Shown one piece after another: positions 20,701 through 59,200 of a stretch of DNA of 64,000 nucleotides. The stretch's first letter is position 1, and every line of letters begins with the position of its first letter. Position numbers and translations under genes: made by a program. The stretch lies in the IMG/VR virus record IMGVR_UViG_3300042892_003674, one strand, 5' to 3'. The notes beneath the pieces were generated by a model. The model was not told the DNA's origin. It did not search any database and worked only from the letters and a program-made list of their open reading frames with translations. The DNA comes from a virus. Taxonomy: Duplodnaviria; Heunggongvirae; Uroviricota; Caudoviricetes.

Positions 20701-22763
20701 AAGTAGATTGAAGAAACTAGGTATATGATACATTGTCACCACTGTTATACTACAACTGTAGATAAAGATTTCATTTGTGATACCTGTGAGGAGTTATACT
20801 GTGAAGAATGTTCTTATACGTTCTCATTACATTACCAATTCCAAGGAAGTAGATGTTATCTGTGTGCAGACCAAGCAAGAAGAAATAAACTAACTAAACA
20901 AATAATTAGACAGAATAAACTTAAATTATTATCTTTGTAATATGAAAGTCAAATGTATAAGAAACTCACCATTAGTATATGGTGGTGGAGTAACCGTAGA
21001 TAAAACCTATCAAGTATTAGATAGTGGTCATATAGGTGGTGAACCAGTATATTACTTAATGAAAGATAATAAACATAAAGACTGGGTATCACAAAATTAC
21101 TTTATTACAATTGAAGAACTAAGACATAATAAATTAAACGAACTGGGAATATAATATGGCCATAATAAATGCAAAAGAAGAGTTTGTTAGACACACTGTA
21201 CGTAAAGTCATAAAGTGTGCTTATATCCAATTCATAGATTATGAAGATGGTGAAAAGTTCTCATTGACAACCGGATTTACACAAGATGAATATAATCAGT
21301 TTCTATCTGATATAGATAAGACTTATAATAACGGTTATGGCGGACAAGAACTAGATGGTATGATTTGGTATGAAGATGGTACTTGGACAACCAGAGGTGA
21401 GTATGATGGTTCAGAGTGGTGGGAATACCACGAAGTTCCTGAGATACCAGATTTTCTGAATCGTATAGATAAAGTAAGAGATAAAAAGTTAAATGATATA
21501 CTAGAATGATTAGTTTAAAAGAAATAGTTTGGGTAAAACAAGCAGGTATATCTGATGATTATATTTACCATGATGGTATACTAAATGGACACCAAGTGAT
21601 TTCTATACATGAAAGTGTTGATTCGCTCTATGAAAAGAATGGTTATACTGTTTATGATCACATAGGTAAAACCGCAGCTTCGGATAGAACGGTTTACAAA
21701 ACATTAGATGATGCCAAAACCGTATCTAAAAAGAAAGTAGAAGATTTTGTATTTGGTTTAATTGATATGAGAGACTATAAAATAAGTACTCTGTTAGAGA
21801 GTTCAACTAAATTGATATGAAAAAAGGTGATTGGGTAGTATGTGTACATCATAGATTTGCTAACTTTACAAAAGGTAAGAAATACCAACTAATAAGCGAT
21901 TCATACGGTTCTACATTAGATATTCTAAATGATAAAGGTGAACGAGGTAGACCCTCATTAAATGGTTATGAAAGTGGTAAAGCAATTACCTACTTTATGA
22001 CTATACAAGATATAAGAGAAAAGAAATTAAATGAGATTCTATATGACAGCAGAAGATATGATAATAGGAAATGATGTTATATGTATTAATAATACCAATG
22101 CAGATGAAGTCATAAATGAAATAACTATCAATAATAAATATAAAATAGTTGAATTTGATAATCACATGAATTGGATAAGAGTATTAAATGATAAAGGTAA
22201 AGTAGAATGGTATACAATAAACAGATTCACTACAATTGATGAGTTAAGACATAATAAATTAAATGAATTAGGTATATGAAACTAAAATGTATTAAAAATT
22301 GGATAGACTATAAAGATGGAGACATTAGAGACGTATCAACTTATCTTACCATAGGTAAAATATATTATCTAGCTAATGAACCTGCCTGTTCTGAATGGGT
22401 TTATAATATCATAGATGATAGAGGCAAACCTCATGATATGGGTAAAGATTTGTTTATAGATGTCTTACCAATCGAAAGAGAAGAAAAATTAAATCAATTA
22501 GGAATATGACAGAACAAGAATTTATCGATTATATGGCACCATATGGTACACACGTACAATTTCAATGGGGTGATGATATTATACAAAAGAAGATACATTT
22601 GACACCAAATAACTCAAATTATAAAAACTTTCCACACATATCTAAAGGTAGAAAATATCATATGGAGTTTGAAATAAACGGCAAAAGATCATCAATAAAA
22701 GAATGTTCTGATTTGATAACGATATATAAAAGAGAAGAAAAATTAGAAAAATTGGGTATATGA
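17725..22763 (+). other. tandem array of about 19 family B small proteins
   Basis: Mostly MKxxCI..LTxGKxY..DDxG..F..R[DE]xKLxxLGI; many joined by GG(T/A)ATATGA stop/start overlaps. Confidence 0.85.
21787..21809 (-). mobile_element. TA-flanked double-hairpin micro-insertion (21-bp variant)
   Basis: TAGTTGAACTCTCTAACAGAGTA on -. Removal restores the tag RDYKISKLI. Confidence 0.55.
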
Positions 22764-27731: not shown

Positions 27732-28997
27732 ATGCCAACTAGTAGACCATTCGCTTATAACCCATCACAAACATTTATACCAGGTATAGAATTATACGGT
27801 GCATTATCTGTTGGACCAGTTGGGTCTGGTAAAATCACTGGACTAACTACTTGGAATGGTCCTGATGAAGATTTAGGATATGTTATTGCAAAAGTAGTAC
27901 CGGGTAATAGTCAACCTACACCAATAGCAGGAGTCTCGGCATCTGTAGGGTTTTATAGATCATCAACTTTTACGGAAGAAGCATTCCTTTTAATTGCAAA
28001 TAGAGGAATAGGACTCAATTATTCAGATGGTTCATTAGCAAGTAATTATCTATTATCAAATGGTTATTGGACTAATTATCCAACAGATGATCCAGATGCA
28101 CTTATATACATGAATGCATTGAATTCAGTAGGTGGTAATTCTACTTTTTTTTATGATCCATCTATTATAAATCAATTATTTATAGGTTTAAAGACAGCGG
28201 GTCTTTATGATAAAATGGAAGCTTTTTATCCAATGATGGGTAATTCGGGATTGTCACAAAGACTTAATGCAAAATCTGTTGGTGGTGTAAGACAGTCAGG
28301 ATTTGATTTATTCTTTAGTGGTGGATGGAACTTTAACTATTATTCTAATGGCCCATATACTGCGAGGGGTAATGGGTTTAATACACTTATATCCGTGAAT
28401 AAACAATATACTACTCTAGCATCACTTAAAGATACACATTTTGCAGTATATGGAAATGATCTTGGATATCCTACAGGAGGAGGTGATACTGCAGCAGCAG
28501 ATGTTTTTGCAGTTGATTTATACACAACTAATGGTATAGAGTATCGTTTTGTTGAGATGAGATTAGCGAATTCTACGAATCCATTTTTTAATGAACCCAG
28601 AACTTATGATAGTACATATGATTATCCAGGGAACATACTTCCACAGGCAGGTCCAGTAATTAATACTAATGGAACTTCAACTCGTAACTCATTTGCAATA
28701 ATGAGTTACGACAACATTTTAGATAATGGTACTAATAATTTTAGTATAAATGGATCTCCTTACACTAACTATAATTTCGATCCGGCAGATACAGTTCCGA
28801 GTGATCCGGCAGATACAACATACGGAGCAGAACTAACTTTTGGATATTACTATGATTGGTATCATGGTCAACAATTTTATACTGGAGCAGCATATGGTTG
28901 GCTAGGTTTTGGTACATCATTAGATGCGACTGAACAATCTAACTATCAATCAATTGTAAATACCTTTATGCAAGGAACTGGAAAAAGTACTTATTAA
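27732..28997 (+). CDS. putative virion structural/accessory protein
   Basis: G/S/T/N-rich, RPFAYNP..WNGPDEDLGYVIA N-module; AATATATAC upstream. Confidence 0.6.
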   Translation: MPTSRPFAYNPSQTFIPGIELYGALSVGPVGSGKITGLTTWNGPDEDLGYVIAKVVPGNSQPTPIAGVSASVGFYRSSTFTEEAFLLIANRGIGLNYSDGSLASNYLLSNGYWTNYPTDDPDALIYMNALNSVGGNSTFFYDPSIINQLFIGLKTAGLYDKMEAFYPMMGNSGLSQRLNAKSVGGVRQSGFDLFFSGGWNFNYYSNGPYTARGNGFNTLISVNKQYTTLASLKDTHFAVYGNDLGYPTGGGDTAAADVFAVDLYTTNGIEYRFVEMRLANSTNPFFNEPRTYDSTYDYPGNILPQAGPVINTNGTSTRNSFAIMSYDNILDNGTNNFSINGSPYTNYNFDPADTVPSDPADTTYGAELTFGYYYDWYHGQQFYTGAAYGWLGFGTSLDATEQSNYQSIVNTFMQGTGKSTY

Positions 28998-32505: not shown

Positions 32506-32627
32506 ATAATGTATATATTATAAAATAAAATTACTTATCTTTGTAGAAGTCATGTGCTGGAATGGTGTCCTGACTACAAGCAGGTGGGTTGTGAGTGACT
32601 TCCCGGAAGTATGGAACTCTCATTTTT

Positions 32628-32729
32628 AGTCAGGTGGTGAAATTGGCAACCACAGCATGTAAATCCCCGGGTATTGTGTTGAAAACTTACGAGTGATTAG
32701 ATATACAGGTTCGAATCCTGTCCTGACTA
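32628..32729 (+). tRNA. tRNA-like RNA, anticodon undetermined
   Basis: Acceptor AGTCAGG/CCTGACT+A, D arm GTG-AAATTGGCAAC-CAC, T arm ACAGG-TTCGAAT-CCTGT; irregular ~50-nt centre. Confidence 0.7.
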
Positions 32730-32743
32730 CTAAATAATAAATA

Positions 32744-41901: not shown

Positions 41902-43032
41902 ATGATAAAAAAAATTGTATGTATTTCTAAAGAACATAATGGTAGTATATATAATGGAGTTATTGTTGGCGAAATATACGATATAGTAGAATACCTACCT
42001 ACTGTTGCACCAAATGGTAGATTTAGAATAAAAGGTAAATTAGAAGGGATAGAATATTCTTCTGGTATAAAAACAATTGATCTTTTCCCAAAAGAACTAT
42101 TTATTACCTTACAACAATGGAGAGAACAACAATTAAATAAGATTGGAATATGACACTAAAAGAATATATCGAACAACTACAAAAGTTCGCCGAAATGAAC
42201 CCCGAAACATTAGATATGGATGTTATCTACTCACGCGATGATGAAGGTAATGGATTCCAACAAGTTCATTATGCACCATCCAAAGGTAACTATGAAGATA
42301 TGGAGTTCCAAGAAGGTGATGAAGATGTAAATGCGGTTTGTATAAATTAAATAATATGGAAGAAATAGAAAACGTTTACAAAATTATACATGATGAAACC
42401 TATAATAACCAGGTTCTTCTTGATATAGAACTTAGTAAAATTAGTGATCAAAAACTAGTAGTAGGTATGTTATGTGACCTTTATGCCAAAGAAGGTTATA
42501 AAGCAGATAAAGACGCAATGATATTAAGTATGAGAAACTACTGTGATATAGAACACCTTAATCTACAAGAATGTAATGCTTACTTTATTGATAAAATGAA
42601 AGAATATAGATCAACTAAAGTAAAGGCACCAAGCGCTGATAAACTTAAACAATTTTTATCTATTCTTCAATTAAGTATGAAACAAGCAGTTGATGGTCAT
42701 GTTACCCTACCTGAAAATAAAGAGTATGTTGACTTTGTTAAAGAACTATCCAATGATGAATTTGAATTCTTCAAAAATATCCTAATTGGTCAAGAACTAT
42801 ATGAAGAAGTAACTAATATGATAAACATCAGATTGTAATGGCAACTACTAGAAAAACACCACAGCGAGTTTTCTGTGAAGATACCTCAACCCTTCTCAAA
42901 ACAATACGTTCTCATAAAGAACACGGTAAAACAAAGGTTATAAATGGGATAACGTATGAGATTATAGGTGGTGATATGTTATTTAATACAAAAACAAATA
43001 GAATAGAACAAGTTAAAAGTTTAGAAAGATAA
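41902..43032 (+). other. four small hypothetical ORFs, first with family B tag
   Basis: WREQQLNKIGI; YSRDDEGNGF motif in 42150. Confidence 0.65.
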
Positions 43033-43063
43033 ACTTTTAAAATCAATAAATAAAAATTAAACT

Positions 43064-44113
43064 ATGAGAGTAAAATTACTTTTCCTATTATTTCCCTTCT
43101 TTTGTCTAGCACAAATCCCTACATACTATACATCTATTGATTTCTCACAGACTGGTAACAATCTAAAAAACCAGCTTACCACTTTAATAACAAATACACA
43201 CACTACCTTTTTACCATATACAGCTACAGGAACTACTGATACTTGGGATGCTTTATATCAAACTGATTTAAACCCAACAAATACTAACAATGTTCTTTTA
43301 ATTTACGGTTGGGATGATAATGATAATGATTTCACAAATGATTACTCTCGTGATAAAACTTTATCATGTCATACGTCTTCATGTTCTGGTCTATGGCAAA
43401 GAGAGCATGTTTTCCCTCGTTCATTAGGTACTCCAAATTTAGGTTTTGAATTCGCTGGTTCAGATGCTCACAATTTAAGATCTATCGATGCTGACAGGAA
43501 TGGTGCAAGAAGCAACCGCATGTTTGAAGACAGTTCAAGCTCTGTGATGTCTTTTATTACGACATTAGGTAATTGGTATCCTGGTGACGAATGGCGTGGT
43601 GATGTCGCACGTATGATAATGTATATGTATGTTCGCTATCCTACTCAATGTGCCGCAACAAGTGTCGGTGCAGGAAGTACTACCTTCTCTGTTGATATGC
43701 CAAATGTTTTTTTAAATTGGAATGTAGCAGACCCTGTTTCTCAATACGAACTAAATAGAAATAATATACTTCAAAATATTCAAGGCAATAGAAATCCCTT
43801 TATTGACAATCCCTATCTAGCAACTGTTATTTGGAATGGTCCAAATGCTCAAAATCCTTGGGGTTCATTATCATCAAGCAATCAAAGTATTGCTAACATA
43901 TCAATATATCCTACTATAACAAAAAACATAGTACACATAACAAATCCTAACAACCAAAATTATCAATACTCTATTTTTAATACATTAGGTCAATTAATCA
44001 AGACCAATACCACTACTGATATTATAGATATTTCAAACAATTCAAAAGGAATATACTTTATCAATTTACAATTAGAAAATCAATCAAAAAATTTTAAAGT
44101 TATTCTAAATTAA
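43064..44113 (+). CDS. secreted endonuclease I-family nuclease with T9SS type A sorting domain
   Basis: Signal peptide; WQREHVFPRS, DAHNLR, RGDVARM..YM, NRNPFIDNP; C-terminal IYP..IFNTLGQLI..GIYFI..KVI. Confidence 0.9.
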   Translation: MRVKLLFLLFPFFCLAQIPTYYTSIDFSQTGNNLKNQLTTLITNTHTTFLPYTATGTTDTWDALYQTDLNPTNTNNVLLIYGWDDNDNDFTNDYSRDKTLSCHTSSCSGLWQREHVFPRSLGTPNLGFEFAGSDAHNLRSIDADRNGARSNRMFEDSSSSVMSFITTLGNWYPGDEWRGDVARMIMYMYVRYPTQCAATSVGAGSTTFSVDMPNVFLNWNVADPVSQYELNRNNILQNIQGNRNPFIDNPYLATVIWNGPNAQNPWGSLSSSNQSIANISIYPTITKNIVHITNPNNQNYQYSIFNTLGQLIKTNTTTDIIDISNNSKGIYFINLQLENQSKNFKVILN

Positions 44114-44132
44114 ACAGATCTTTATCCCTAAA

Positions 44133-44160: not shown

Positions 44161-44298
44161 CTTTACTTGGTAGACACATATAATCTCCGTATCTTTGTAG
44201 TGTAATCTCGAAGAAAGTCGAGTAGTGGATGACGGGCGATGTGTAACACCAACACAGGAAGAGTAGACTCCACCCTATTTTTATATTTTTTAATATAA

Positions 44299-44326
44299 TG
44301 TATAAAAAACGTACAGATTTTATACA
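44299..44326. repeat. 28-bp palindromic site, copy 4 (inverted relative to copy 3, 27/28 match)
   Basis: TGTATAAAAAA-CGTACA-GATTTTATACA. Confidence 0.85.
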
Positions 44327-44338
44327 AAGAATCAAATA

Positions 44339-46163
44339 TTAATGAAAATGTTTATCAGAAAATAACCGATCGATGATTTTCATCCTCCTTATTGTATTAA
44401 ATACTGAAAGTGGCTCTAACAAACCACTACCAGTATTATAAGTTATATTCTTTAATCCCAACTTCCTCTCAATCGATTCCTTTATCCTCAATTTTAAATC
44501 CATAATCAAACCAATACCCCTATTGTTGTCATTAAACCACCATTAAACGTGTTCCTTGAAACATCTATAGCTCTTATAACATAAGTTACACCTTCATATA
44601 AAATCGTGTCTCCCACGTCAACTTTCGGTAACTCCTTCTCCCATACCTCAGAACATAAACCAGACTTAATGAAATCTATAATCAATACAACTCCACGACC
44701 AGTTAGGTTAAACTTATCCGTAACAACCAAATTATCCCAATTCTTCATAATACTTTCCTCCTTCTATATACAATACGATCCTCATCAAAAATACCAAAAA
44801 TCCTCCTTATCGCAGCCTTCCTCATTAAAACACGTAAGAACTCATACTCATAATCATCTATCATAACTATCATCTCAAATAGGTGATACTATTTTGATTA
44901 AAATGTAACTTAATATATTTCCACTCTAAATACTCCTTTGAATGTGTCTTGTCATAAATAACTAAAGAATCAATAGGTAAATGAAATAACCTCTCAACCT
45001 TTCTAACTCGCTGCAATCTTTTCATCATATTACCCTCTTTCTTTAAATTCATGACCCTAACTTAAAATCTTCTCTAACTTTATCTGCCTAATCTTTTGCG
45101 GTAAATCCTCAATAATTTCTGATCCACTTACCGAAATACCATCATATAAACATGATATATGAACCTGATGATATTTCTCATTATAAACCGAAGAGTTCCA
45201 AGTCATTGATGATAACTTCTCAATAATTCTTATCACCTTTATACTATGATAATCATTTAAACCAGGCTTCTCCTTCATAAGTATATCAAATACATCCTGT
45301 GCCAAAAACTCAGCAATCTTAGTATAATCAAAATCCTGACCACTAGTAGTAAAACTAAATGACTTATCGTCGTTCTCTATAAGAACATCAACCAATTCTC
45401 CAAAACTATTTTCAAATATCATATCCATGAGATCTTATTTGTTAAATTATAATACCAATCACCATTAGTCATCCCATCAGGTTTAAATAACCTGAAAATC
45501 TTTCCCATACGATTCATTACAACCCTATGCTGTCTAGGTGTTCTATTAGGCTTCGTACTCTGTGTATGCAGAGAGTGTTTCACACTACTACTACTCATAT
45601 CAATCCTTTCAAAATATGAATTATCTTCATCTTTCTTACAACACGTCTTCTCTCAATCCAACCAGGTAGATGAGAGCTCATATACTCTTCATACCACTTA
45701 TTATCCATTCAATATCCTTTTAATCTTTTTCATCCGTGAGTTCTTTCTTATCCACTTTAAATTCGTCGGTCTGTGAACTCTCTTAGACCATTCGGTATAA
45801 CCCATACCATAAGTGACTATCGGAAGCGCCATGACAAAATCCTTTTAATCTTATACTTTCTTGTTAGAATAACAGGTAACCTAGCTTCTCGTAACTTATG
45901 CTTTTTCCACCACCTCAATTGAGTAAAATCATTATTCATATAAAAATCCTTTTAATCTTATTCTTTCTTATTAGTCTAGTCGGTAGTGTAACGTGAAGTT
46001 TAGCACTAGGGTTCAGAATACCTAAACCAACATTTACTGCACTGTAGAGAGTAAAAATCTTTTTAATCTTTCTCTTTCTAGCAATCTTACTACTATAGGT
46101 TCCTTTCACAGCATAGTACGAACCCGGTGAAATACCTAAACTACCTTTTTTTATCGGTTCCAT
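44339..46163 (-). other. operon of about 10 small ORFs, most basic with an R-x-x-K-I-x-x-I/L-like motif
   Basis: RKRKIKKIF, RKNKIKRIF, RKYKIKRIL, RMKKIKRIL, RMGKIFRLF, RQIKLEKIL, RVRKVERLF, RRMKIIDRLF. Confidence 0.65.
45556..45587 (-). mobile_element. TA-flanked double-hairpin micro-insertion (30 bp)
   Basis: TA-GTGT-GAA-ACAC-T-CTCTG-CATACA-CAGAG-TA, in frame in ORF 45419..45598. Confidence 0.65.
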
Positions 46164-46338
46164 ACTTATTCAAAAACTCTTCTAAGATACATTCGATCAA
46201 TTCGTTTCTCTTATATTGGTTCGTCTCACAGTACAACTCAAACTGGTCATAAACCTCTTTGTTCATAAAGAAGTTTATCCTTTGCTTTTTTGGTTTAGGT
46301 GGTTTAAAACCTTTCTTCGCTCTTTCAAACATCGTCAA
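46141..46338 (-). CDS. ribbon-helix-helix (CopG-like) DNA-binding protein
   Basis: KQRINFFMNKEVYDQFELYCE..KRNELIECILEEFL strand-helix-helix pattern. Confidence 0.7.
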   Translation of the reverse strand: MTMFERAKKGFKPPKPKKQRINFFMNKEVYDQFELYCETNQYKRNELIECILEEFLNKYGTDKKR

Positions 46339-46339
46339 C

Positions 46340-46560
46340 TATTTTCTTTCTATATATATTCTAAATAATGCGAAAAGTTATCCACAATCGCAAATAAATG
46401 TAATGACCTTGAAAAGGTTTTTGGAACAACCTTACAAACACGAATAGGATCAACTAAAAATTTGTATAAAAAACGACCGGATTTTATACACTTTTGGTAA
46501 TTACACTTATTTTCACTATATTTAGGTAACTTCACGATACTATACTAATATAATGTAAAT
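46340..46560. other. candidate replication origin region
   Basis: Strand skew switch, TTATCCACA at 46378-46386, 28-bp site at 46463, divergent genes. Confidence 0.5.
46463..46490. repeat. 28-bp palindromic site, copy 5
   Basis: TGTATAAAAAA-CGACCG-GATTTTATACA. Confidence 0.85.
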
Positions 46561-46682
46561 GGATGATAAAAATATTGATAAAGTATGTACTGTTTTGGCT
46601 ACTCGAAAGTGTATGACTTTATATGGTTTTTACAGAAGTATAAGTAAGAATATGGTAAGATATGTTTTAAGACAAGCTAAGA

Positions 46683-47111
46683 TTGTTTCAATATTTAAAG
46701 AGAGATTTGATTATGAAGAGTAATAAGAATTATCATAAGGATATGATAGAAAGTATAAAAGATTATACAAAGCATTATACTATAATAAGAGGTTATTGTG
46801 ATGTTTTTATAGATCCTAACAGAACACTTGTTCCACTTTATAGTGTTACTAATAATGACTATTGGATTGTGTTGGGTAATTTATCTGATGAGGCAATCGA
46901 TGATTTATTTGAGGATAGTTCTTTTAGTGATGAGGATGGTATTGAACGAGAAGGTTGTTATGAGTATTCGGCTTGTTTGTATTATTCTTCTGGTAGTTGG
47001 GATGAGCAATCAGAAAGTTACATTGATTATATAGATTTTAATTTTGTGGAGACTTTTGAGAGTAGGGATCGAGATAAGAAGTTGAATGAGTTATTGGGTT
47101 TTGATTTTTAG
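46683..47111 (+). CDS. acidic protein with family B tag (start probably ~46713)
   Basis: RDKKLNELLG. Confidence 0.7.
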   Translation: MFQYLKRDLIMKSNKNYHKDMIESIKDYTKHYTIIRGYCDVFIDPNRTLVPLYSVTNNDYWIVLGNLSDEAIDDLFEDSSFSDEDGIEREGCYEYSACLYYSSGSWDEQSESYIDYIDFNFVETFESRDRDKKLNELLGFDF

Positions 47112-47716
47112 TTTAGATTCCAGTCTATAGGTGTTATATTATTCTGTAATAGATATTGATTAGTTTTACTAAAGTGTTTATTATTGAACCATTTCCCTTG
47201 GTTGGCGGATAGGGGTGATGGATGGCCAGACTTGAGTATAAGGTGTTTTGTGCTATCGATTAGTTTTTCTGTTTTGTGAGCTTGTGAACCCCATAGAATG
47301 AATACGAGGTTTTCTTTATTATTATTTAGTTCTGATATAATATTATTGGTAAATTGTTCCCATCCTTTATTCTTATGTGAGTTGGGTTGGTTCTTTCTTA
47401 CTGTTAGTATTGTATTAAGAAGTAGTACACCTTGGTTATGCCAATGAGTTAGATTCCCGTGAGATGGTATTGTGATGTTTAAGTCGTTATTAAGTTCTTT
47501 AAAGATGTTTTTCAGAGAAGGTGGAATAGTTGTATCTAGGGTGGAGAAAGCTAGACCGTGAGCTTGGTTTTCACCGTGGTACGGGTCTTGACCTATGATG
47601 ATTACTTTAGTGTTATTAAGGTTGGTTAGTGCGTTAAGTATTAAATCTTTAGGTGGGAAGCATTGGTGTTGGGAATATTCTTTATCTATGAATTTTTTTA
47701 ATTCGGATGGTATCAT
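47108..47716 (-). CDS. ung: uracil-DNA glycosylase, family 1
   Basis: GQDPYH, HGLAFS, PPSLKNI, GVLLLN, HPSPLS. Confidence 0.97.
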   Translation of the reverse strand: MIPSELKKFIDKEYSQHQCFPPKDLILNALTNLNNTKVIIIGQDPYHGENQAHGLAFSTLDTTIPPSLKNIFKELNNDLNITIPSHGNLTHWHNQGVLLLNTILTVRKNQPNSHKNKGWEQFTNNIISELNNNKENLVFILWGSQAHKTEKLIDSTKHLILKSGHPSPLSANQGKWFNNKHFSKTNQYLLQNNITPIDWNLN

Positions 47717-48000
47717 GACAGGAGTAATTTTATTCTAAAGTTTCTTATTGTTTGTTTATCTGCTTTGGCAAGTTCTAGTGCGTATAGTAGTGCGCTTTCG
47801 TATGTTGGTAGTGTTATTTCGTTATTTGTGCCGTAGCCGCCGCATATAGCTGTTCCTAGTTGGTGTGTTACGGTACAGGAGTATCGGTTACCTTTGTGTG
47901 TAGTATCGTAGAAAGCATCAATTTCGATGGTTGTGTATTGGTCTAGTTGTATTGTTTCTATTATATTTTTGGTATAGTACTTTGATTTTGGTAATTTCAT
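47713..48000 (-). CDS. hypothetical protein, tag-like C-terminus
   Basis: TYESAL..AL; IRNFRIKLLLS. Confidence 0.6.
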   Translation of the reverse strand: MKLPKSKYYTKNIIETIQLDQYTTIEIDAFYDTTHKGNRYSCTVTHQLGTAICGGYGTNNEITLPTYESALLYALELAKADKQTIRNFRIKLLLS

Positions 48001-50432
48001 TATGATGATTTAATATATAAGTATATGATGAGGTATTTAAAAAGTTTTATGGAGTCTGATTTTTATGTTAGGTTGAAAGGTGATGATTTGCAGGATGAAT
48101 TGGATGATGTTTGTGAGCAATTTTTGGCACCATTGGCGGATGATGGGTTTACGTATGAGGTTAGACCTGCTTGGAATGGTGAGTTTGATATAAGGTTATC
48201 TTTTACTGATGGTGGTCGTACGAATAAGTTATATGATTATTCTTTGGTGATGGATAGGTTTATCCCGTTGGTTCGTATGTTATCTAGGAGGTATGATTTA
48301 CATGATACTGTTTATTTTTATAGTACAGAGGTTTATGATATGGATAGGAAATCTTTTACGGTTGGGCAGATATTGAATGATGAGGCGCCGGATTTTTTGG
48401 TTACTACGGTTAAGTTGACGGTTAAGTCGAGGAAAGGTTAGGATTGTGGTGGGACCAATCAGGGGTTCGGGGAGCCGTTGCCTTCGGCAAGTAGTTTGAG
48501 GGTCGTCGGAGTCGTAAACGTGCTGACGCACGTGGGGTTTTAAAATAAATTGTAGTGATGAGATACATAAAGAAGTATAACGAAAGTAATTCAGAAGGTT
48601 TAACTGAGGAAGTAATAAAGGATTTCTGTGAGATGAATCTAGCTTATCTAATGGATGATGGTTTAAAGGTTTTGGTTTCACCAGATTATTTTGATTTAAA
48701 GGTTATAGATTATAAGGTGACGTTATCGTTTAGATTATTTGTTAATAAGAGGTGGGGTCAGATAAAGGATCAGGTTATACCATTTTTAACACATTTAAAG
48801 AATGAGTATGATTTAGTAGCAGATTTAGGTAATATGGGGGTTTCTGATTATTCTCAAAAGGTATTTTTAAAGAATAATATAAGGATTGAGATGATTGGTT
48901 CGGTAACTACATATCCTGATTGGTTTAATATAGATGATGTTATATCGGAGAAGATTGTTCCGGCTGGTCGTCTCCAAGACGATTATAAGATTTATACAAT
49001 TCAGTTTAAAATTAAAGGTAAGAAATGAAATACATAAAGACTAGTGAGACATTGAAATCAGAGGCAGATGTTGCTTATCAGAAAAGGATGGAGTTACAGG
49101 AGTTTGCTAATGATTGTTTAGTTTATCTTATAGATGATGAATGGTCGGTATCGGTGTGGGGATTTACTACATCGTTTAAGATTGTTTTGTTATCACCTAG
49201 GTCGGTTAAGAGAAATAGAGTTCATCATGATGATGTTACTTGGTTATCGGTAAAGAATCATGTTATTCCATTTGTTCAGATGTTATCTAATAGGTATCAT
49301 TTGGGTTATGAGGCAAGTTCATCGATTATTAGGATAGAGGCGACTTATTCGGATGATATACATATTAAGGATATAAAACAGTTAGAGGATTTATCGGATG
49401 ATATGTTATTTTATAGTTTTTCGATTGTAGTAAAAAAATAGGTTAGGTATGAAACATTTGAGAAAGTTTAATGAGAGTATAGATGAGAATGAATTAAGGG
49501 ATTTCTGTGAGATCAATTTAGCTTATTTGTTAGATGATGGTTTTGAGATAATGATTAGTGGTAATAATTTCAGTGGAGATTCTTTTAAAAGTATAAAAAT
49601 AACTAATCCAAGGTCTTTAGATGATCGTCAGGATGGTACGGTAAATTATTTTAAATGGAATGACATTAAAGATCATTTTATACCATTTTTTACACGTTTA
49701 TTAAATCAGTATTCACTTTATGGTAACTTTATAGTGGCGGATGGTATATTGTTTCACTATATTGCACCTATGTATGCTCATGATAGAAGTACTAATTGGT
49801 ATAAATTCTCTGGGTTAAGGACTACAAAGTTGTATAAACCATCTTTAGATAATGTATTAAATGATGAGGTATATGATGATGTAAGTACAATACATAATGG
49901 TAATCATTGTATGAATTACTTATATAGTATTGAATTATTAGTAAAAGAAAAGTAGTAAGGTATGAAACATTTAAGAAGGTATAATGAGAGTTTAGATAAA
50001 GATGAGTTAGAGGATTTCGTAGAGAGTTGTTTAGCTTATTTATTGGATGAGGGTTTTAATGTTTTTATTCCTAGATCATCTGGTGATGATTCTGTTGCGA
50101 TTTGGTTAGCTATTTCTAATCAATATTCTACTAATTCAACTTCATTCACTTGGGATCAGATAAAGGATCATTACATACCGTTATTGAAGTTATTATCTAA
50201 TAGGTATGATATAATTGGATTTGGTGAGCCGAGTAGAGATGGTCGTTCTATTGAGATGGATTCGACTGCTCAGATAAGATTTAGATTACAACCGGAATAT
50301 AGTAGTGATGCGTTTAGGGATTTTCCGTTATACAAGGTGATGAATGATACTTTATTTGGTTCTTATTCGTATGAGCCAAGTTTATATTCGGTGGGTATTA
50401 TGATTAAAGAAAAAAGATAGGTATGAAACATT

Positions 50433-50464
50433 TAGTACGAAGTACTCTTTACGGAGGTAAAGTA
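50433..50464 (+). mobile_element. TA-flanked double-hairpin micro-insertion (30 bp)
   Basis: TA-GTAC-GAA-GTAC-T-CTTTAC-GGAG-GTAAAG-TA splits MKHL|RRFNE. Confidence 0.75.
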
Positions 50465-50951
50465 AGAAGATTCAATGAAGGTTTGTCTTCTAATGAATTT
50501 GATGAGTTAAAAGATTTTAGTGAAAGTTGTTTAGCTTATTTATTGGATGAGGGTTTTGAGCTTGAGTTGGTGGATAGATATGGTCGTGATTCAAATGACC
50601 CTTCGTATGAGATTGACTCGGATTACTTTTGGATTGATCTTTATGGTCCGTTTATTACTCAGCCTGATATGTATGGTGCAGTTCCTAATGATAGAAGTTA
50701 TAGTTGGAATCAGATAAAAGATTATTATATTCCATTTCTTCAGTTATTAAAGGCGAGGTATGTATTAGTAGATGATGAAAGAAGTTATAAAGGAGATGTG
50801 GTTTACTTTAAGATACTAGAAGGCGCAGATGTTGATACGGCATTTAAAGAGTTTAAACTTGACGAGGTTATAGGAGATAAGATTACATTAGATAGTATCT
50901 TTTCAGTATCAATAAAAGTAAGTAGTAAGATATGAAACATTTGAGAAAGTT

Positions 50952-50983
50952 TAGTACGAAGTACTCTCTGCTAGAACAGAGTA
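50952..50983 (+). mobile_element. TA-flanked double-hairpin micro-insertion (30 bp)
   Basis: TA-GTAC-GAA-GTAC-T-CTCTG-CTAGAA-CAGAG-TA splits MKHLRKF|NES. Confidence 0.75.
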
Positions 50984-51461
50984 ATGAGAGTTATACTCAG
51001 CAAGATTTAGATGAGTTAAAAGAGTTTTGTGATGATCACTTATCATATTTGATTGATGAGGATTATAAGGTTTCTGTTCAAGATTTTGAGACAAATGCTG
51101 GTAGTGTATTACAGGTTGTTGTTAGACCACCGAAGGTTATGAGAAAGAATAATTGGGCAACAAGATTAAAAACGAATTTAATTGAGGAAGAGTTGGGAAC
51201 ACCTTTTTCACATTTCAAGGATAGGTTGATACCATTTGTTTATATGTTATTGAAGGATTATCGTTTGATAACCAATGAAGAGATGGATAGAATGGAATTA
51301 GGTCATGATGAGGGTGGTATGGGTTTTGCGATGCCTAATCCTAATAGTAACATATTAGATACGAAAATGGTACGTGTTAGTTCTTTAGAACATTTAGAAC
51401 AGGTTGAAGATAATCTAATGGTTTCAACATTTTATATAAGAATAAAAAAGAAAGATTAGTT

Positions 51462-53162
51462 ATGAGAAAGTTTTTATTAACTATATTATTAATGTTAGCT
51501 ACAATTGCCGTTACAGCTCAAAGTGTTACCGCTCCTCCAGCAACATCATATAATCAAAATACTTCAAATCAAAGTGCTACGGGATTTTCGGTATCAGGAT
51601 TTGTACCGACATCTACTTTATTAGTTACTGTTGGGTTAGTTAATCCTCCGTCAGGTACTACTTTAAGATTTTCGACGACATCAGGAGTAACTGCGAGCAC
51701 AGGATATGCAATGACATCTAATTTTACTAGAATTAGTTTTACAGGCCTTCAAGCAAATGTAAATACAGTTCTAGCATCACTTTTAGTAAACACAGGTTCA
51801 ACACCTGGGAATTTATATATAGCAGTTACTGCAACAGAAAATCCGGCAGGTTATTTTTATTTACCGACAAATGGTCACTTTTATCGACCAATCGCCGCGG
51901 GAGCAACTTATACCAATGCAAGAGCTGCTGCATTGAATACGACATTTAGAGGTCAGCAGGGATATTTAGTAACTATCACTTCTGCTGATGAAGATTTGTT
52001 TATCTTTAACAACGTTCCTCAATCTCAAATATGGTTTGCATTAACAGATGAAGGAGTAGAAGGACAGTGGAGAATTGATGCTGGTCCAGAAGCCGGTACA
52101 TTAATCAAGACATCTAATGGTCAGACAGCAGGTAACATTGCAGGTCAGTATAATAATTGGGCAGGTGGAGAACCTAATAACTCTGGTAATGAAGATTATG
52201 CAGTAACAAAGTGGAATGGTTCTCAATGGAATGACTTACCTAACAGTTTTTCATGTCCTTATGTAATTGAATATGGTACATGGTCTGATCCTGCAAATCA
52301 AACTTTTACAAATTTCTATACAGGATTCGTAACTCATCAAATAGCGTGTAGTCCTGCAACCTCACCAACAACTCCTAACGGAGTTAATGGCTCTAGATCA
52401 TTAGCAGGAACAGTTTCTTTATCAGCAACGACAGCAGCGGGTACGACTGTAGATTGGTATGCTAATGCAACAGGTGGTAATGTACTTTCTGGAGGTTCTG
52501 GAACTTTATCATTTACGACTCCTAGTATTTCAGAAACTAAAACATATTACGCTCAAGCTAGGAATTCAACGACAGGATGTGTTAGTTCATCAAGAACTGC
52601 TGTGGTGGCTACTGTAAATTACCCAACACCATTTACATACTCAGGCACTATTAATAGTTCTTTAGGAGCTGGAGTACCAAATATTGCAGTTAAGGTTTAC
52701 TATAAAACAAAGGCAGGATCTACATATACATTGTTACAAACATATACGACAGATAATTTTGGTATATTTTCAATTTCAACTTCGCTAGATATTTCAAGTT
52801 ATGACTTTCAAATAGTTATTGATAGCATACCTATTACATCTCCTTCTGTATCCGATGCATTAATATTTAATCAAAAGGTATTATTTCAAACGTTTGATGC
52901 AAAGGATTATTATAGAATGAATACCAATGGTAATTCTAATTTAACAGTCGCTGATATATTTTTAATCTATAGAAGAATTAATGGTACTTCATTTTCAGTA
53001 CCAGTATATAGATTATTTACACAAACCGAATGGAGTATTATTAATGCATCGACTGCAAATTTAACAGCCTCATATACAGGCACACAAACTATAACTTTAA
53101 CTAACCCAACAGCAGGTGGTAATTCAACATTCTACCTAATTAAAACAGGATTCGCTAACTAA
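51462..53162 (+). CDS. secreted C-type lectin plus Ig-like domain protein
   Basis: Signal peptide; GYLVTITSADE..WFALTD..EGQWR..YNNWAGGEPNN..EDY..WNDL; DWYANATGG..FTTPSIS.TKTYYAQ; EF-hand-like NTNGNSNLTVAD. Confidence 0.85.
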   Translation: MRKFLLTILLMLATIAVTAQSVTAPPATSYNQNTSNQSATGFSVSGFVPTSTLLVTVGLVNPPSGTTLRFSTTSGVTASTGYAMTSNFTRISFTGLQANVNTVLASLLVNTGSTPGNLYIAVTATENPAGYFYLPTNGHFYRPIAAGATYTNARAAALNTTFRGQQGYLVTITSADEDLFIFNNVPQSQIWFALTDEGVEGQWRIDAGPEAGTLIKTSNGQTAGNIAGQYNNWAGGEPNNSGNEDYAVTKWNGSQWNDLPNSFSCPYVIEYGTWSDPANQTFTNFYTGFVTHQIACSPATSPTTPNGVNGSRSLAGTVSLSATTAAGTTVDWYANATGGNVLSGGSGTLSFTTPSISETKTYYAQARNSTTGCVSSSRTAVVATVNYPTPFTYSGTINSSLGAGVPNIAVKVYYKTKAGSTYTLLQTYTTDNFGIFSISTSLDISSYDFQIVIDSIPITSPSVSDALIFNQKVLFQTFDAKDYYRMNTNGNSNLTVADIFLIYRRINGTSFSVPVYRLFTQTEWSIINASTANLTASYTGTQTITLTNPTAGGNSTFYLIKTGFAN

Positions 53163-53246
53163 AAATTTACTATTTTTACTGTTAAGTTGAAGATGGTTTA
53201 ATGTTTTCTACGTTTTATATATAAGAGTTAAAAGAAAGATTAGTTT

Positions 53247-56200
53247 ATGAAACATTTAAGAAAGTTCAATGAGGGGTTAAAAGAAGAGTTACAGGATTTC
53301 TGTGAGACTTACCTAGCTTATTTGATTGATGAGGGGTTTAAAGTAAGGATTTCAAAGTTTGAAGGAGATGACTTTCATCAGATAATGTTGGGTTATGCAA
53401 CAGACGGTTCGGGATATGGTAATAATAATCGTTTATGGTCAGAGATGAAGGATCAGGTTTTGCCGTTCTTACATTTTTTATTTAAGGATTACGAATTGTA
53501 TTGGGATAACGGTGTAGAAGCACCGATGGGTATTATTTATCATTTAATGGGTGGTTCTGGTACATCTGGTTCTCTTAGACAAAGTAGTCTAACATTGAAG
53601 CAGATAAATGATTTACCTGATGATACTGAGATAGCTACTTTATTTATTAGGGTTATTAAAAAGGAAGAAAAGGTTGAAAAAGCTTGGTTTAGAAAATTTT
53701 AAATAATATATACATTATGAAGTATTTAAGAAGTATTTTTGAAGAGGTCAATCAAAATGAGTATGAAGAGTTAAAAGATTTCTGTGAGATGTATTTAGCT
53801 TACTTATTAGATGATGGTGATTGGCGAATAGACATTTCTATGAGAACTCAGGTTTATCCACATACTGGTTTTTATGACGTTATGATTTGGAGAAGATATG
53901 AGACGAATGCAGATGGATCACATAGTTATCCTAATTGTACTTGGGATGATGTATCTGATTATTTTATACCATTTTTCAAAGTTTTGATAGATAATTATGA
54001 GTTAGTGCCTAGTGTTTCTCGTAGTATGAAAACGGGAGAGCTTGTTGATAATTTAGTGGAGTTTTCAGGGGCAAATGTACCAAAGGAAAAGATATTAGGT
54101 AATTTGATACCGGGTAATCAACCAGCTAGAAAAATAAGTTTTAAAGTAAAACGTAAGATATGAGGTATTTAAAGAAGATTTTCGAGAACGATTTATATAA
54201 ACAGGTTGATTCGGATGAGTTAAAAGATTTCTGTGAGACTTACTTAGCTTATTTATTGGACGATACTAGTTTTAAGATAGAGGTTATTGATACAGAAAAG
54301 TGGGATTCATATACTATCTGGTTGGGTAAGACTTTAGTAGATCGTCGTATTCAGACTTTTAGTTGGGATGACATTAAAGATTATTATATTCCATTTGTTA
54401 CGATTTTATCAAGAGAATATGATTTGAATGATATAGATTTAGATCAGAGAAGTTCGAGTATTATTATCAATTTTATGTCTGGTAATCAATTATTTGTTAC
54501 TGCGTCTGGTATTGAAGATTGGGATGGTAGACTTACAAAAAGACCAGATTTTTATAACGGTAATGGTATCAAAGAGATTGGTATTGTAGTAAAAAATACT
54601 ATAAAGATATGAGGTATTTAAAAACATTTGAGTCTATTGATTTAGAGAAAGATTTAAGAGATTTTTGTGAGACTTATCTAGCTTATTTGTTAGATGGTGA
54701 TTTTGAATTATCTGTTATTTGGCAGGGTCATAATCCTTTTCTGGTCCCATATAACCGTTATAATATAAATCTAGTTAAGTTAAATGATTATGGAGCTACT
54801 GGATTTACTTGGAATGAGGTTAAAGATTACTATATTCCTTTTTTACATATGTTGAATAAAGATTATGAGATAATGGATGAAGGTGAAGCAAGTAGAAACG
54901 CGGGGCAGTGGGATGTTCCTTGTATTTGTTTATATAATGGTAGTCAAAACTTTTGTGTTTCGGTTAAGGATATTTTATCTGGTGAGCCTTTACCTGGTAG
55001 ATATGATGATAGACCTTTATTAGAGATTACACTTCAGGTTGCGTTCAAAAATAAATTGGTAGAATGAGATATTTAAAAAGATTTAATGAGTCAGTTGATT
55101 TAAAATCACAACTACGTGATTTTAGTGAGTCTTATCTAGTTTATTTGTTAGATGATGGTTATACGGTAAATATTACACAAGCAAGTGATCATTCAGGTGG
55201 TGGTGGTTTGCCACCAAATGCATTTTTGATAAAATTGAGTAATGACATTGATTTTACTTGGTTAGATGTTAAAGAGTCATATATTCCATTTTTACATATG
55301 TTAAATAGAGACTACAATATAGTAGATCAGTCTATAATGATTTATGATTATAATGATGATACTGAGTTTGGTATTGAAACAATTTTATCTGGTAATCCTT
55401 TACCATTTGATAATAAAAGTTTAATAGAGATTTTAGTTTGGGTCACTTTTGATAAACCTATTAAAGAGTCTGTTGAATTGAAGACAGATGATGTAGAACA
55501 TTATTTGGTTGAGTTATTGGATTCTGGATTTGATGATGTCAGGGTTACTAAAAGTGCTGATAGATATAAGGATGTTGAACCAATGACTGCAATTTCTATG
55601 GAGAGAAAGCTTACTACTGATGAGTGGCAATCTATTTTAAGAACTGGTATTATATATGAGAATGTGATAATTGGTGTGAGATCTGAACCGATGAGAGTAT
55701 TTACTTCTAGTCAATTTAAGAAGCCAGTTCCTTTATCTATTTTTAAATCTGATATATTGAATCAGGTTGAGTTTTTCGCACAGGATGCTGCAGATAAGAT
55801 TTTATTGAGTTTATCTGATAAGTTTGTTAGTAAGAAGATTGTGATGTCTTTTAAGGCAGGTGCAGGTCAGGTTCAACGATATAATTTTGGTGACATTTCG
55901 ATTAGATTACAGATTATTTTAACAGAAAAGGAAGATACAAAATGAAATATTTAAAGAGGATTTTTGAGAATTTAGATAAGGATGAGTTACAAGATTTCTG
56001 TGAGATGAACTTAGCTTATTTATTGGATAATGAAGATTTTAGGATAGACATTGAATACTTTGATGACTTGATAGGTCAGTATTTGGTTGTTATTAAATTG
56101 GTTAAAATGGTTGAGCTTAGTGCTGGTGGAAGAATGACGACGATGTATCAGTGGCAAGAGGTTAAAGATTATATTGTACCGTTTATTGTACAATTGAATA

Positions 56201-59200
56201 AGAGTTATAGTTTGAATACAACTTGGAATGATAATAAAGGTTCGATTACTATTCGTCAGGAACAAGAGTGGAGAAACTTTTCTTATGAGAAGTTTATGAG
56301 GGTTGTTGATAATTGGTATGAAGATGATGATGAGATAAGATATATTGAAATAATATTAGATAATAAATGAAACACTTAAAAAAATACAATGAAGCGGTTG
56401 GTGGTGTGAATGGAGTTAATGATTTCTGTGAGGGTTACTTAGCAAATATTTTAGATGATGATTCTTATCAGTTTAATGTAACAGAGCAAATGTCTGGCCA
56501 TAGGGTATCACCATCGTATTATTTTAGTTTATACAAAGTAGGTAATGGTGCATATGATATAATTCAGTGGGATGAGATTAAGGATCAGATTATACCATTT
56601 TTACATATGTTGATAAGAGAGTATAGTATTGAACCTATGAGACTTATAGATCAATCGAAGCTAACCTATCAAACAAAAAACGTTTATATAGATGATAATC
56701 CTAGAAACAGAACGATTCAGTTTAACAGGTATTTACCGGATACTTATAGTTCTGATCTTTATTATATGGATGTGAGGAATGTTATAAAGGACGAGGATGT
56801 TCCTGAAAAATTCTATCGAATACAATTACAATTTTACTAATATAATATATAGTTCTATGAAATACTTAAAACCATTTAACGAAGCCGTAACACAAGACGA
56901 CATTGAATTATGTTGTGTTGATTTATTTGATGATGGATTTGAATTAAATGGTTATAATAAGACTGGTAAAACAATAATTCAGTTAGTGAAGAATATTACT
57001 TCTTCATTACCAGACGATCAATCTAATATAGTTGTAGTTGATGAACATTCAAAGAATTATAGACAAGGTACAATAACTATATCAGGTAGAAATTTTGATC
57101 ACGTTATTGCAAAAGAAAGATCTAGTGATCTACCATTTACTGAGAATGAGAATAAACTTATAAGTCAAGTTAGTGATGCTGCAAATCTATTGAGACATTA
57201 TAGTAGTACTAATGGTGGGACTGATCGTGTTGTTATTACTATAACAAGTAGAGGAATACAGAATCCTATGAACTTTGAATATGAAAGATACTTAACACAA
57301 ATAAATATATTATTCTATATATGAGATACTTAAAAGGGTTTAATGAAGCTATTGAACAAGACAACATTGATTTATGTTGTGTTGATTTATATGATGATGG
57401 ATTTCAGTTACTAGGTTATAACAAGACTGGTAATACCTTGATTTCATTACAGAAGAAAATAGTTAGTCAATTAGATCAGTGGGATGGTCACACAGGAACA
57501 GATACTAGAGCAGGAGTTATGTGGGATGAACATTTAAGTAAGTATCAACCGGGAACTATTACTATTACTGGTGATAATTTTGATAAGGTTGAAACTAGTT
57601 TTAGACAAACTTGTGGTTGGGATAGAACTAGACCATTACCATTTACTGATGATGAGAATAAACTTATAAATCAAGTTACTGATGCGGCTAGTATATTGAC
57701 ACATTATAGTGATACTGAGGTAAAAAGAAAAAGAGTTGAAATACAAATTTCTAGTAGAGGTTTACAAAATCCTATGAACTTTGAATATGATAAATACTTA
57801 ACAATATTAAAGGTAACATTCTTCTTATGAGATACTTAAAGAGATTTAATGAGGCAATTGAACCAGATGAGATAAAAGACTTCTGTGAGCAGTATCTAGC
57901 TTATTTGTTAGATGATGGTTATGCTTTAGCTTTTAGAGAATCTGGTAGAATAACTCAAGTAGACTTTGTTAAACCAAAGGAAAATCCTTTACACGGTAGA
58001 TGGAGTCCTGGTTTTGGTGGACCGGTTGATTGGATGGATTGGGATCATATAAAAGATAGTTTTATTCCTTTTTTAAAGATGTTAGATAAGGAGTATGATG
58101 TTAAGGATAATCTTATAACTTTTCAATGTCCTAGCGCGATACAAATTCAAATATCTTTTCAGGATGTTATTGATGATAAAGTAAAAGATATACTTCATGA
58201 CAAACTTACATTAGATGCTAGAGATAGAATTAGTTCTGTTAGAATAAATGTTATCGATCATAGTGTTAAGGATTATGCTTGGCAGGTTAAAGAAGCTAAA
58301 GAAGATTGGAGAAGAAACTTCAGTGATGATGAGTTACAAGAAGTTTGTGATACATTTTTACCTTATCTTTATGATGAGGGTTTTGTTGTACACACCACGG
58401 TGCCTACTTATTTTATGTTTAAGAAAAACATTATTACACTTTGGAAAGAACAAGAAAAAGGTGATGGTCGAGGATTAGAGACTCTTCCATTTTATTGGCA
58501 TGAGATAAAAGATAGATTTCTACCACTTTTTGATTATTTGAATAAGAATTATCCGTTGGGTAAGGTTAGATTGGTTCATTATTATAATTCTTGGGAAAGA
58601 AAAGAGAACAAGAAAGAAGTGGTTTTTAAATCGGATAATGATAAAGAATCTTGGAGTGGACTTCCATTTAGTAAGTTTGAGGAGATTATGTCGAGAGATG
58701 CCGCTTATAGAAGACCAATGAAGATTGGTGAGATAATAATAGAAGTACAAAATTTAGATGAGTTATGAGATATATAAAGTTATTTGAGGGTTTTAAAGAT
58801 GATTTACTTGGATTTACTCAGGACCGCTTAGCTTATCTTATGGATGATGGATTTGATCTTACAACAAATGACACACAGAATGGTTACTGGCGTGAATATA
58901 ATGTTGATTGTGGAAAAATTTCAATAGTTAAACGTTCAGGTTTCACTTGGGAGGAAATTACTGATAGATTCTCACCGTATATTTATATGTTGAATAAAGA
59001 ATATAGTATTTTAGAAATAGTATTTCATCAGAGTGGTGGAAGACAACAACAATATGATACTAGAAAAGATATAGAAGAACTTGTAAGTGGTGAATCGGAT
59101 CAGTATCTTACCAATAAGTTGTATTGGATGATAACAATAATAGTAAACAAATGAGATATATAAAATTATTTGAAGTATTTGATAGATGGTCAAGAGATCA

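Follow-up and report, generated by a model that had tools for sequence, protein, structure and literature searches.

Copies in the window and their host genes

The DNA considered here is a stretch of 64,000 nucleotides (nt) from a virus of the class Caudoviricetes (IMG/VR record IMGVR_UViG_3300042892_003674), hereafter referred to as the window, and our subject is a family of very short inserts, i.e. 28 nt able to fold into two hairpins and flanked by TA on both sides, three of which lie in the window shortly behind start codons. Copy A (50433..50464, plus strand; TA, the 28-nt double hairpin and TA) starts 10 nt past the ATG of gene 50423..50935 (plus strand, 170 aa), a member of a family of 13 paralogs whose leader thereby gains the residues VRSTLYGGKV. 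Copy B (50952..50983, plus strand), laid out as copy A, starts 20 nt past the ATG of another member of the same family, gene 50932..51459 (plus strand, 175 aa), to which it adds STKYSLLEQS. Copy C (45556..45587, minus strand), whose hairpin 1 reads GTGT-GAA-ACAC, starts 11 nt past the ATG of gene 45419..45598 (minus strand, 59 aa) and adds SVKHSLHTQS. It is kept in all 8 members of the cluster of its host protein; the homologue of this gene in the related contig L019 harbours a copy of a different subfamily, 9 nt further in. Copies A, B and C are, we infer, older members of the family, found in all or nearly all sampled close relatives and lying in N-terminal leader peptides.

The three copies have a common layout (TA / GTNN-GAA-NNAC / T / CT..AG hairpin / TA) and score 45.7 (A), 44 (B) and 46.1 bits (C) with a covariance model of the family. 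An unfiltered scan of the window with this model returned them at 44-46 bits (E ~1e-9), then a 21-bp variant in fourth place, the remainder being noise. The 16-nt core pattern has 3 matches in the 64-kb window against 0.03 expected, and none of 100 shuffled sequences reached 3; once two mismatches were allowed, the 3 copies and 5 unrelated matches made 8, which is not above chance. Sequence, pattern count and covariance model confirm the three 30-bp insertions that the original prediction, made from the letters of the window alone, had placed at these positions with this layout, and their frequency is far above that in shuffled sequence.

Thirteen tandem paralogs of 138-175 aa occupy window positions 48025-57830 and are characterised by a leader M-K/R-H/Y-L-K-x-F-N-E and a core W..IKD..IPF. 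In their alignment (48.0-57.8 kb), copies A and B are the sole 10-residue insertions and stand at two different leader positions; gene 49449 matches gene 50932 minus its insert exactly, and stands for the empty site of copy B. The original prediction had taken the different positions as a sign of independent events. A-type and B-type copies also recur elsewhere at an identical leader position in different paralogs, and exchange of leaders, instead of fresh transposition, may account for part of their spread. Paralog leaders look mosaic between alleles (MKHLRRY, MKHLRKF, MKNLRKF for one gene), a pattern that suggests frequent recombination among paralog 5' ends.

The 21-bp variant (21787..21809, minus strand; 19 nt plus TA) is a probable miniature member, with 15.8 bits and an E-value of 0.075. 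It lies antisense in the last codons of gene 21506..21820 (plus strand), where it adds 7 residues inside a C-terminal tag, and taking the 21 bp out restores the canonical tail (...RDYKISKLI*). An empty allele was not found for it, the three members of the protein cluster all being 104 aa long. The interruption of the tag that had been proposed is borne out by the restored tail, while membership of the family is only probable. All four window copies, this variant included, preserve the reading frame of their host genes.

Filled and empty alleles

The site of copy A is polymorphic at both the protein and the DNA level. Two 160-aa members of the 90%-identity cluster of the protein encoded by 50423..50935, namely P0006 and P0008, which are 90-97% identical to it, lack exactly the ten inserted residues. 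In the DNA of L019, L020 and L021, the empty alleles read CATT-TA-AGAAG where the window has TA, 28 nt and TA. The reverse situation was also encountered: P0078, an allele at 96% identity to window gene 56367..56840, has 10 additional residues, and P0091 (L073), an allele at 93% identity to window gene 49962..50420, has a B-type insert at the leader position of copy B.

For a wider survey, both flanks of each copy were joined and searched against the available DNA for ungapped counterparts. A counterpart without the element, either in a related contig or in a paralogous copy, was retrieved for 21 further distinct sites, with a single TA at 17 of them and TG at 4; flank identity was 90-98% at 11 of the 21. 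Three of the TG counterparts are at lower identity (84-88%), the fourth being the site at -4982 of L019 compared with L053 (93%). Eight of the empty sites are inside the window. Six belong to a hotspot at 44200-45900 made of very small minus-strand genes, which also houses copy C; their empty TA dinucleotides (44264, 44704, 44721, 45245, 45798 and 45810) are filled in related contigs; for 44721..44722 the filled counterpart is in L053, whose flanks match the window at 94% identity. The seventh (47801..47802) is in gene 47713..48000 (minus strand), where L022 has a 29-bp copy between flanks 96% identical over 121 nt, and the eighth (56385..56386) is in the leader of gene 56367..56840, where L019, L030, L041 and P0078 have an antisense copy.

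A TA was present on both sides in all 46 distinct copies found without specifying the flanks. Identical copies occur at different sites within one contig, and tandem as well as head-to-head pairs of copies have one TA in common. At L019:4882-4982, two identical inverted copies 70 bp apart form a larger inverted repeat resembling a REPIN, i.e. a pair of inverted repetitive extragenic palindromic (REP) sequences; in L053, the +4882 site is a single TA and the -4982 site a TG.

Taken together, the compared alleles show that insertion leaves TA on both sides and that element-free alleles carry a single TA. They confirm, as far as comparison of sequences can, that the 30-bp unit is an insertion polymorphism, one that is real and reaches well beyond the window. 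Empty single-TA alleles in relatives, on which the original prediction had made its own fate depend, do exist. The duplication of TA that it had proposed is only half sustained: TA does stand on both sides, but a true target duplication is not proven, given that a cut before, within or after the TA would fit the data equally and that duplication is indistinguishable from insertion beside or within a single TA. Among the matches listed for assembled contigs of four lake, estuary and subsurface runs, compared over 40-60 kb, no 30-bp indel was seen at the elements, contigs being unable to show minor variants.

Two other length differences were noticed close to the hotspot. A 27-bp in-frame insert (9 residues, FSNRFIVEM) in the L071/L072 allele of 45936..46163 (minus strand), otherwise 100% identical, was rejected as a family member: it has neither TA flanks nor any feature of the family. 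In addition, a lake-metagenome contig (run X6) joins 43012 to 44129 and is thus without the 1116 bp in which the gene of a secreted endonuclease I, itself bearing a type IX secretion tail, is located; close relatives are polymorphic for the presence or absence of this gene.

Anatomy and predicted folding

The element measures 28 nt (30 bp with the repeated TA) and its consensus is TAGTGCNAAGCACTCTCTGCNTNNGCAGAGTA. Hairpin 1 has a stem of 4-5 bp and a 3-nt loop, and hairpin 2, which abuts it, a stem of 5-7 bp and a loop of 4-6 nt. The conserved frame TA-GT..AC-T-CTYT..ARAG-TA comprises the stem feet, the joining T and the ends. The bases that do not vary are those of both TA, the joining T and the bottom of the stems, where they make up the first two pairs of hairpin 1 and most of the first four of hairpin 2; higher up, the stems are variable, as are the loops. 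The 30-bp size class is dominant in a search that was itself biased towards 30 bp, 29-bp copies make up a subfamily, classes of 27 and 33 bp are rare, and 21 bp is the size of the window variant. Most copies have a GC content of 0.38-0.53 (minimum 0.31) against ~0.30 for the genome. Terminal inverted repeats of at least 10 bp are not present: the ends match only as TAGT versus TACT, each half of the element being self-complementary.

Pairing is strongly maintained. The exchange of GTAC/GTAC for GTGT/ACAC in hairpin 1, already pointed out from the window copies, is real, and both helices covary on 38 distinct sequences, with 95% of cells paired. Double-sided changes amount to 46, compared with 15.5 in shuffles, none of 500 shuffles reaching the observed value and slid controls all being far lower; G-T wobble pairs are rare in the stems. 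Pairing of the joining T with the A of the left TA makes the hairpins abut, so that they can stack, and in the predicted fold both ends and all conserved bases converge at the foot of the two stacked hairpins. Folding of either strand of the window copies and of the commonest variant is predicted to give two stacked hairpins at -4.9 to -9.7 kcal/mol, the two strands of the commonest variant reaching -9.4 and -9.7 kcal/mol. Hairpin 1 of this variant contains GCGAAGC, well known as the classic mini-hairpin of DNA and very stable.

Of the 19 copies situated on the purine-rich (coding) strand, 18 have a purine-rich loop in hairpin 1 (GAA, AAA, AAC), compared with 10 of the 20 on the other strand (Fisher p 0.003); off the sense strand, the loop is often the exact inverse (TTC, TCT, TAT). 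It seems that the loop flips, or is selected, in such a way that purines fall on the sense strand.

Distribution among phages

Public metagenomes were scanned with a degenerate pattern in which inner stem positions were left free and pairing was not required. This added 44 contigs, sampled in lake water and other aquatic settings, which together hold 69 pattern matches, 38 distinct sequences and ~45 distinct insertion sites. Both hairpins were fully paired in nearly all 69 matches, for a chance expectation of ~1 in 32, and the covariance model gave 95 matches in 325 kb of carrier contigs. L019 alone has four other copies at other sites, with AAA or AAG loops. The element structures recur in independent assemblies (NCBI, JGI, ENA and Logan).

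Phage genes, among them those for terminase, virion protein and RNA polymerase, lie on the carrier contigs. The GC content of these contigs is 26-35% with few exceptions, and about half of them share proteins at 35-96% identity with ~100 kb of the window phage and L019. The window phage itself was found in lake and other aquatic metagenomes from 13 studies; a 328,661-bp contig encodes window-phage proteins, which makes it a large phage. The hosts are probably Bacteroidota, because two phage proteins bear type IX secretion tails.

Neither the degenerate pattern nor that of the commonest variant had a match in 185,579 bacterial and archaeal species genomes (596 Gb). IMG/VR viral contigs gave no match to the degenerate pattern, and a single real contig (L074, one copy) with the commonest-variant pattern; the 15 matches obtained there with a first pattern were discarded as chance, pairing being absent. 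In the phage collection, window 48000-53200 had no near-identical counterpart at the DNA level, and tblastn with the protein of window 27732-28997 retrieved nothing. Three distant contigs retrieved through a virion protein had no copies, and the near-identical sister contig, followed to 81 kb, had no further copy. The family is shown to be restricted to phage-like contigs and, judging from the compared contigs, to have entered many TA dinucleotides, unrelated to one another, within a clade of lake phages that are large and low in GC. These mobile micro-elements form a genuine family, which is new in phages.

Relation to genes and to the target sequence

Copies are found in both orientations, in genes (gene middles and 3' ends included) and in non-coding DNA; the expectation that the element inserts into genes is hence often, but not always, verified. 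Within genes, sense copies occupy only the two phases in which the initial TAG is not read, and antisense copies all three. In each of these five usable frames, 72-100% of 32 distinct 32-mers are stop-free. In-frame insertion, true of all four window copies, is not a fixed property of the family, as the 29-bp subfamily breaks the frame. Its members are in non-coding DNA or at gene ends, with one exception in L022, where a 29-bp copy frameshifts the homologue of window gene 47713..48000 past codon 66.

About 10 of 26 collapsed gene-internal sites are at most 40 nt from the start codon, a count read off the table without a statistical test and therefore suggestive only. The simplest reading of this start-proximal position would be tolerance: because the insert is 30 bp, stop-free in five of six frames and adds ten residues, copies may persist in tolerant places, mostly the first 10-40 nt of genes.

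Beyond TA, the target preference is one-sided: 19 of 43 sites have a G at position -3 (p 2e-5), and nothing is preferred at the mirror position. The favoured target, (A)GTA, is thus similar to the 3' end of the element itself, and the data fit a polar insertion after (G)TA of an element that ends in GTA; a 2-bp duplication fits equally.

One 29-bp element (L047 2448-2478) abuts the 3' end of a tRNA-like gene. This gene is part of a tRNA-like cluster (L047:1300-2600, minus strand, and L044:151-306; window 32536-32730 may be compared), three genes of which match the full Rfam tRNA model with a much larger insert at the anticodon-arm position. The inserts were 51 and 76 nt in the two L047 alignments inspected, and ARAGORN recognised one normal tRNA-His only in the cluster.

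Proposed mechanism and alternative explanations

We consider, with a probability of roughly 0.8, that these sequences constitute a family of non-autonomous mobile 28-nt DNA elements that insert at TA and are moved in trans as a folded single strand. The non-autonomous, structure-defined micro-element of the original prediction is supported by the filled and empty alleles together with the covariation. Because it is too small to encode anything, such an element would have to be mobilised in trans, and it would be recognised by the shape of its folded single strand, with the ends and conserved bases meeting at the foot of the stacked hairpins.

Several observations weigh against this interpretation. 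(i) No transposase, HUH/Y1, DDE or serine-recombinase family was detected in the 105 open reading frames (ORFs) of the window, which agrees with the earlier statement that it holds no mobiliser gene, nor among the matches listed (best 25 families) for 129 ORFs of carrier contigs, nor among the genes predicted on the sister contig over 40-81 kb; the only nucleases seen were an HNH homing endonuclease (L047) and a GIY-YIG nuclease (L019). (ii) Relative to genes and GC skew, there is no strand bias, either overall (~19 versus 20) or in the 44-46 kb hotspot (7 versus 4), a misfit with the lagging-strand bias of IS608-type elements. (iii) Copies at the same position in paralogs may reflect leader exchange or recombination instead of new transposition. 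(iv) At the orthologous site B, a compensatory change has taken place in situ (A-T in the window, G-C in L026), and an in-place role of the element is possible. (v) All the evidence is comparative, movement itself not having been observed.

As to what would move the folded strand, one possibility, which we advance tentatively, is a phage-restricted transposition of the 28-nt strand, carried out either by an unrecognised phage enzyme or by the replication/recombination machinery of the phage without any dedicated transposase. Our first candidate for an enzyme would be a single-strand transposase of the HUH/Y1 type, which recognises hairpins; it fits best but is neither supported nor refuted, and we hold this assignment to be doubtful. 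A search for a longer autonomous element, with hairpin 1 and hairpin 2 around a gene, turned up only decayed copies.

Four other routes were set aside. Serine or bridge recombinases need a double-stranded circle, which by our own argument is not feasible at 30 bp; P-nucleotide or hairpin-opening repair disagrees with inserts that are conserved and not copied from the flanks; cruciform resolution, as an excision route, would yield double-strand breaks; and ribosomal bypass does not suit inserts that are open in frame.

An ultra-short transposable element of the miniature inverted-repeat kind (MITE), for whose movement a DDE transposase of the Tc1/mariner/IS630 type, from the phage or from its host, would be responsible, appears unlikely. 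Enzymes of this superfamily cut at TA with a 2-nt stagger and truly duplicate it, and flanking TA with a single TA in empty sites are their hallmark; the 46 copies out of 46 with TA on both sides, the single TA of empty sites and the occurrence of both orientations, as predicted by double-strand insertion, are all in keeping with such an origin. However, terminal inverted repeats are missing (TAGT versus TACT only), 28 nt are too short for two transposase-binding repeats of the usual 20-30 bp, and the target preference is one-sided (G at -3), not palindromic; the polar preference and the lack of inverted repeats together argue against a symmetric double-strand DDE reaction. Furthermore, no DDE_3 or HTH_Tnp family was seen in the window ORFs or among the matches listed for the carrier-contig ORFs, and none of the bacterial genomes searched contains the element.

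We regard as improbable that the element is instead a functional RNA or DNA hairpin module (protein-binding, or tuning translation after start codons) maintained by selection and spread by recombination. Such a role could account for the ~10 of 26 gene-internal sites close to the start (untested statistically), the compensatory change at site B, the purine-rich loop of hairpin 1 on the sense strand (18/19 versus 10/20) and the presence of the same subtype at the same leader position in different paralogs. It is at odds with the occupation of more than 40 unrelated sites, some of them non-coding and others in the middle or at the 3' end of genes, with the element in either orientation, and with the exact TA...TA flanks, single when empty, that offer no flanking homology for recombination. 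Tandem copies with a common TA, a frame-breaking 29-bp copy and the rarity of G-T wobble pairs are further points against it.

Finally, chance similarity or an assembly artefact, which three very short copies in the window might have suggested, has a negligible probability in view of the 3 matches for 0.03 expected, the identical structures in independent assemblies, the strong covariation statistics and the filled and empty alleles.

Implications

Transposable elements are rare in phages, since nearly all insertions fall within genes (PMC11602168). One way round this difficulty is an element that is ten codons long and without stop in five of six frames; if transposition of the 28-nt folded strand is indeed phage-restricted, the stop-free 30-bp design would be an adaptation to densely packed phage genes, and the system would be the smallest active transposon of any virus. 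The element is below the size range of MITE-finding programs and has no inverted repeats, so similar elements may be widely overlooked. Its mobiliser, once found, could prove to be a novel, minimal enzyme for the insertion of DNA, with 2 nt as its target. On the side of phage biology, presence or absence of the element marks recent divergence among lake phages, and the element creates peptide insertions in a hypervariable paralog family. These phages might also provide a model for the mobility of the double-hairpin and GC-cluster elements of mitochondria.

Comparison with known systems

A full-text literature search revealed no such element described in phages. The TA-duplicating MITEs (Stowaway, Correia and RUP; Tc1/mariner/IS630) resemble it in their flanking TA, the single TA of empty sites and their non-autonomous nature, but their terminal inverted repeats are at least 10-15 bp long, whereas the phage element has none and measures 28 nt. 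In a MITE census of viral datasets (PMC11602168), for which inverted repeats were required, sizes went down to 36 and 53 bp, the medians being 72-82 bp.

Rickettsia palindromic elements are described, in work that PMC3733652 cites, as palindromic repeats lying in frame inside genes that stay functional. In-frame insertion into ORFs is what the phage element has in common with them. The Rickettsia elements are ~100-150 bp long, bacterial and not known to follow a TA rule, in contrast to the 28 nt and the phage contigs of the present family. The translational-bypass elements (byps) of Magnusiomyces mitochondria are mobile inserts of 27-55 nt in coding genes; they are skipped by the ribosome, while the phage inserts are open in frame and evidently translated.

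REP sequences are hairpins of 20-40 nt defined by structure and a short conserved tag, with compensatory stem changes from one subfamily to another and occasional copies inside genes (PMC3733652). As in REP and other palindromes derived from IS200/IS605, the phage element has hairpins at its ends that are kept by compensatory changes. The left junction, GTAG in 19 of 43 sites, is likewise REP-like, and so is the commonest variant, which with a GCGAA hairpin on each strand resembles an inverted REP pair. On the other hand, REPs are mainly extragenic, chromosomal, single hairpins of high copy number located beside the gene of a RAYT, the HUH Y1 transposase that moves them, whereas the phage element has TA...TA flanks and no strand bias, is absent from the bacterial genomes searched, and is accompanied by no Y1 gene in the DNA scanned.

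The double-hairpin elements (DHEs) of Allomyces and fission yeasts and the GC clusters of yeast mitochondria are tens of nt long, consist of two hairpins and encode no enzyme (PMC10085805, PMC4478555). They are sporadic between relatives, their mechanism is unsolved, and GC clusters are flanked by AG or ACT repeats (PMC10085805, PMC4478555). The phage element is similarly a short double hairpin, GC-richer than its AT-rich genome, sporadic and flanked by a short direct repeat. DHEs and GC clusters differ from it in that they belong to organelle genomes, where most of them lie between genes or in rRNA genes, by their other flanking repeats and probably also by a lack of shared sequence, the phage element differing in turn by its phage host, a flank that is always TA and the translation of many of its copies. 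Mitochondrial DHEs and GC clusters, REP/REPIN sequences and Rickettsia palindromic elements are the closest in kind to this phage element, which is among the smallest mobile elements known.

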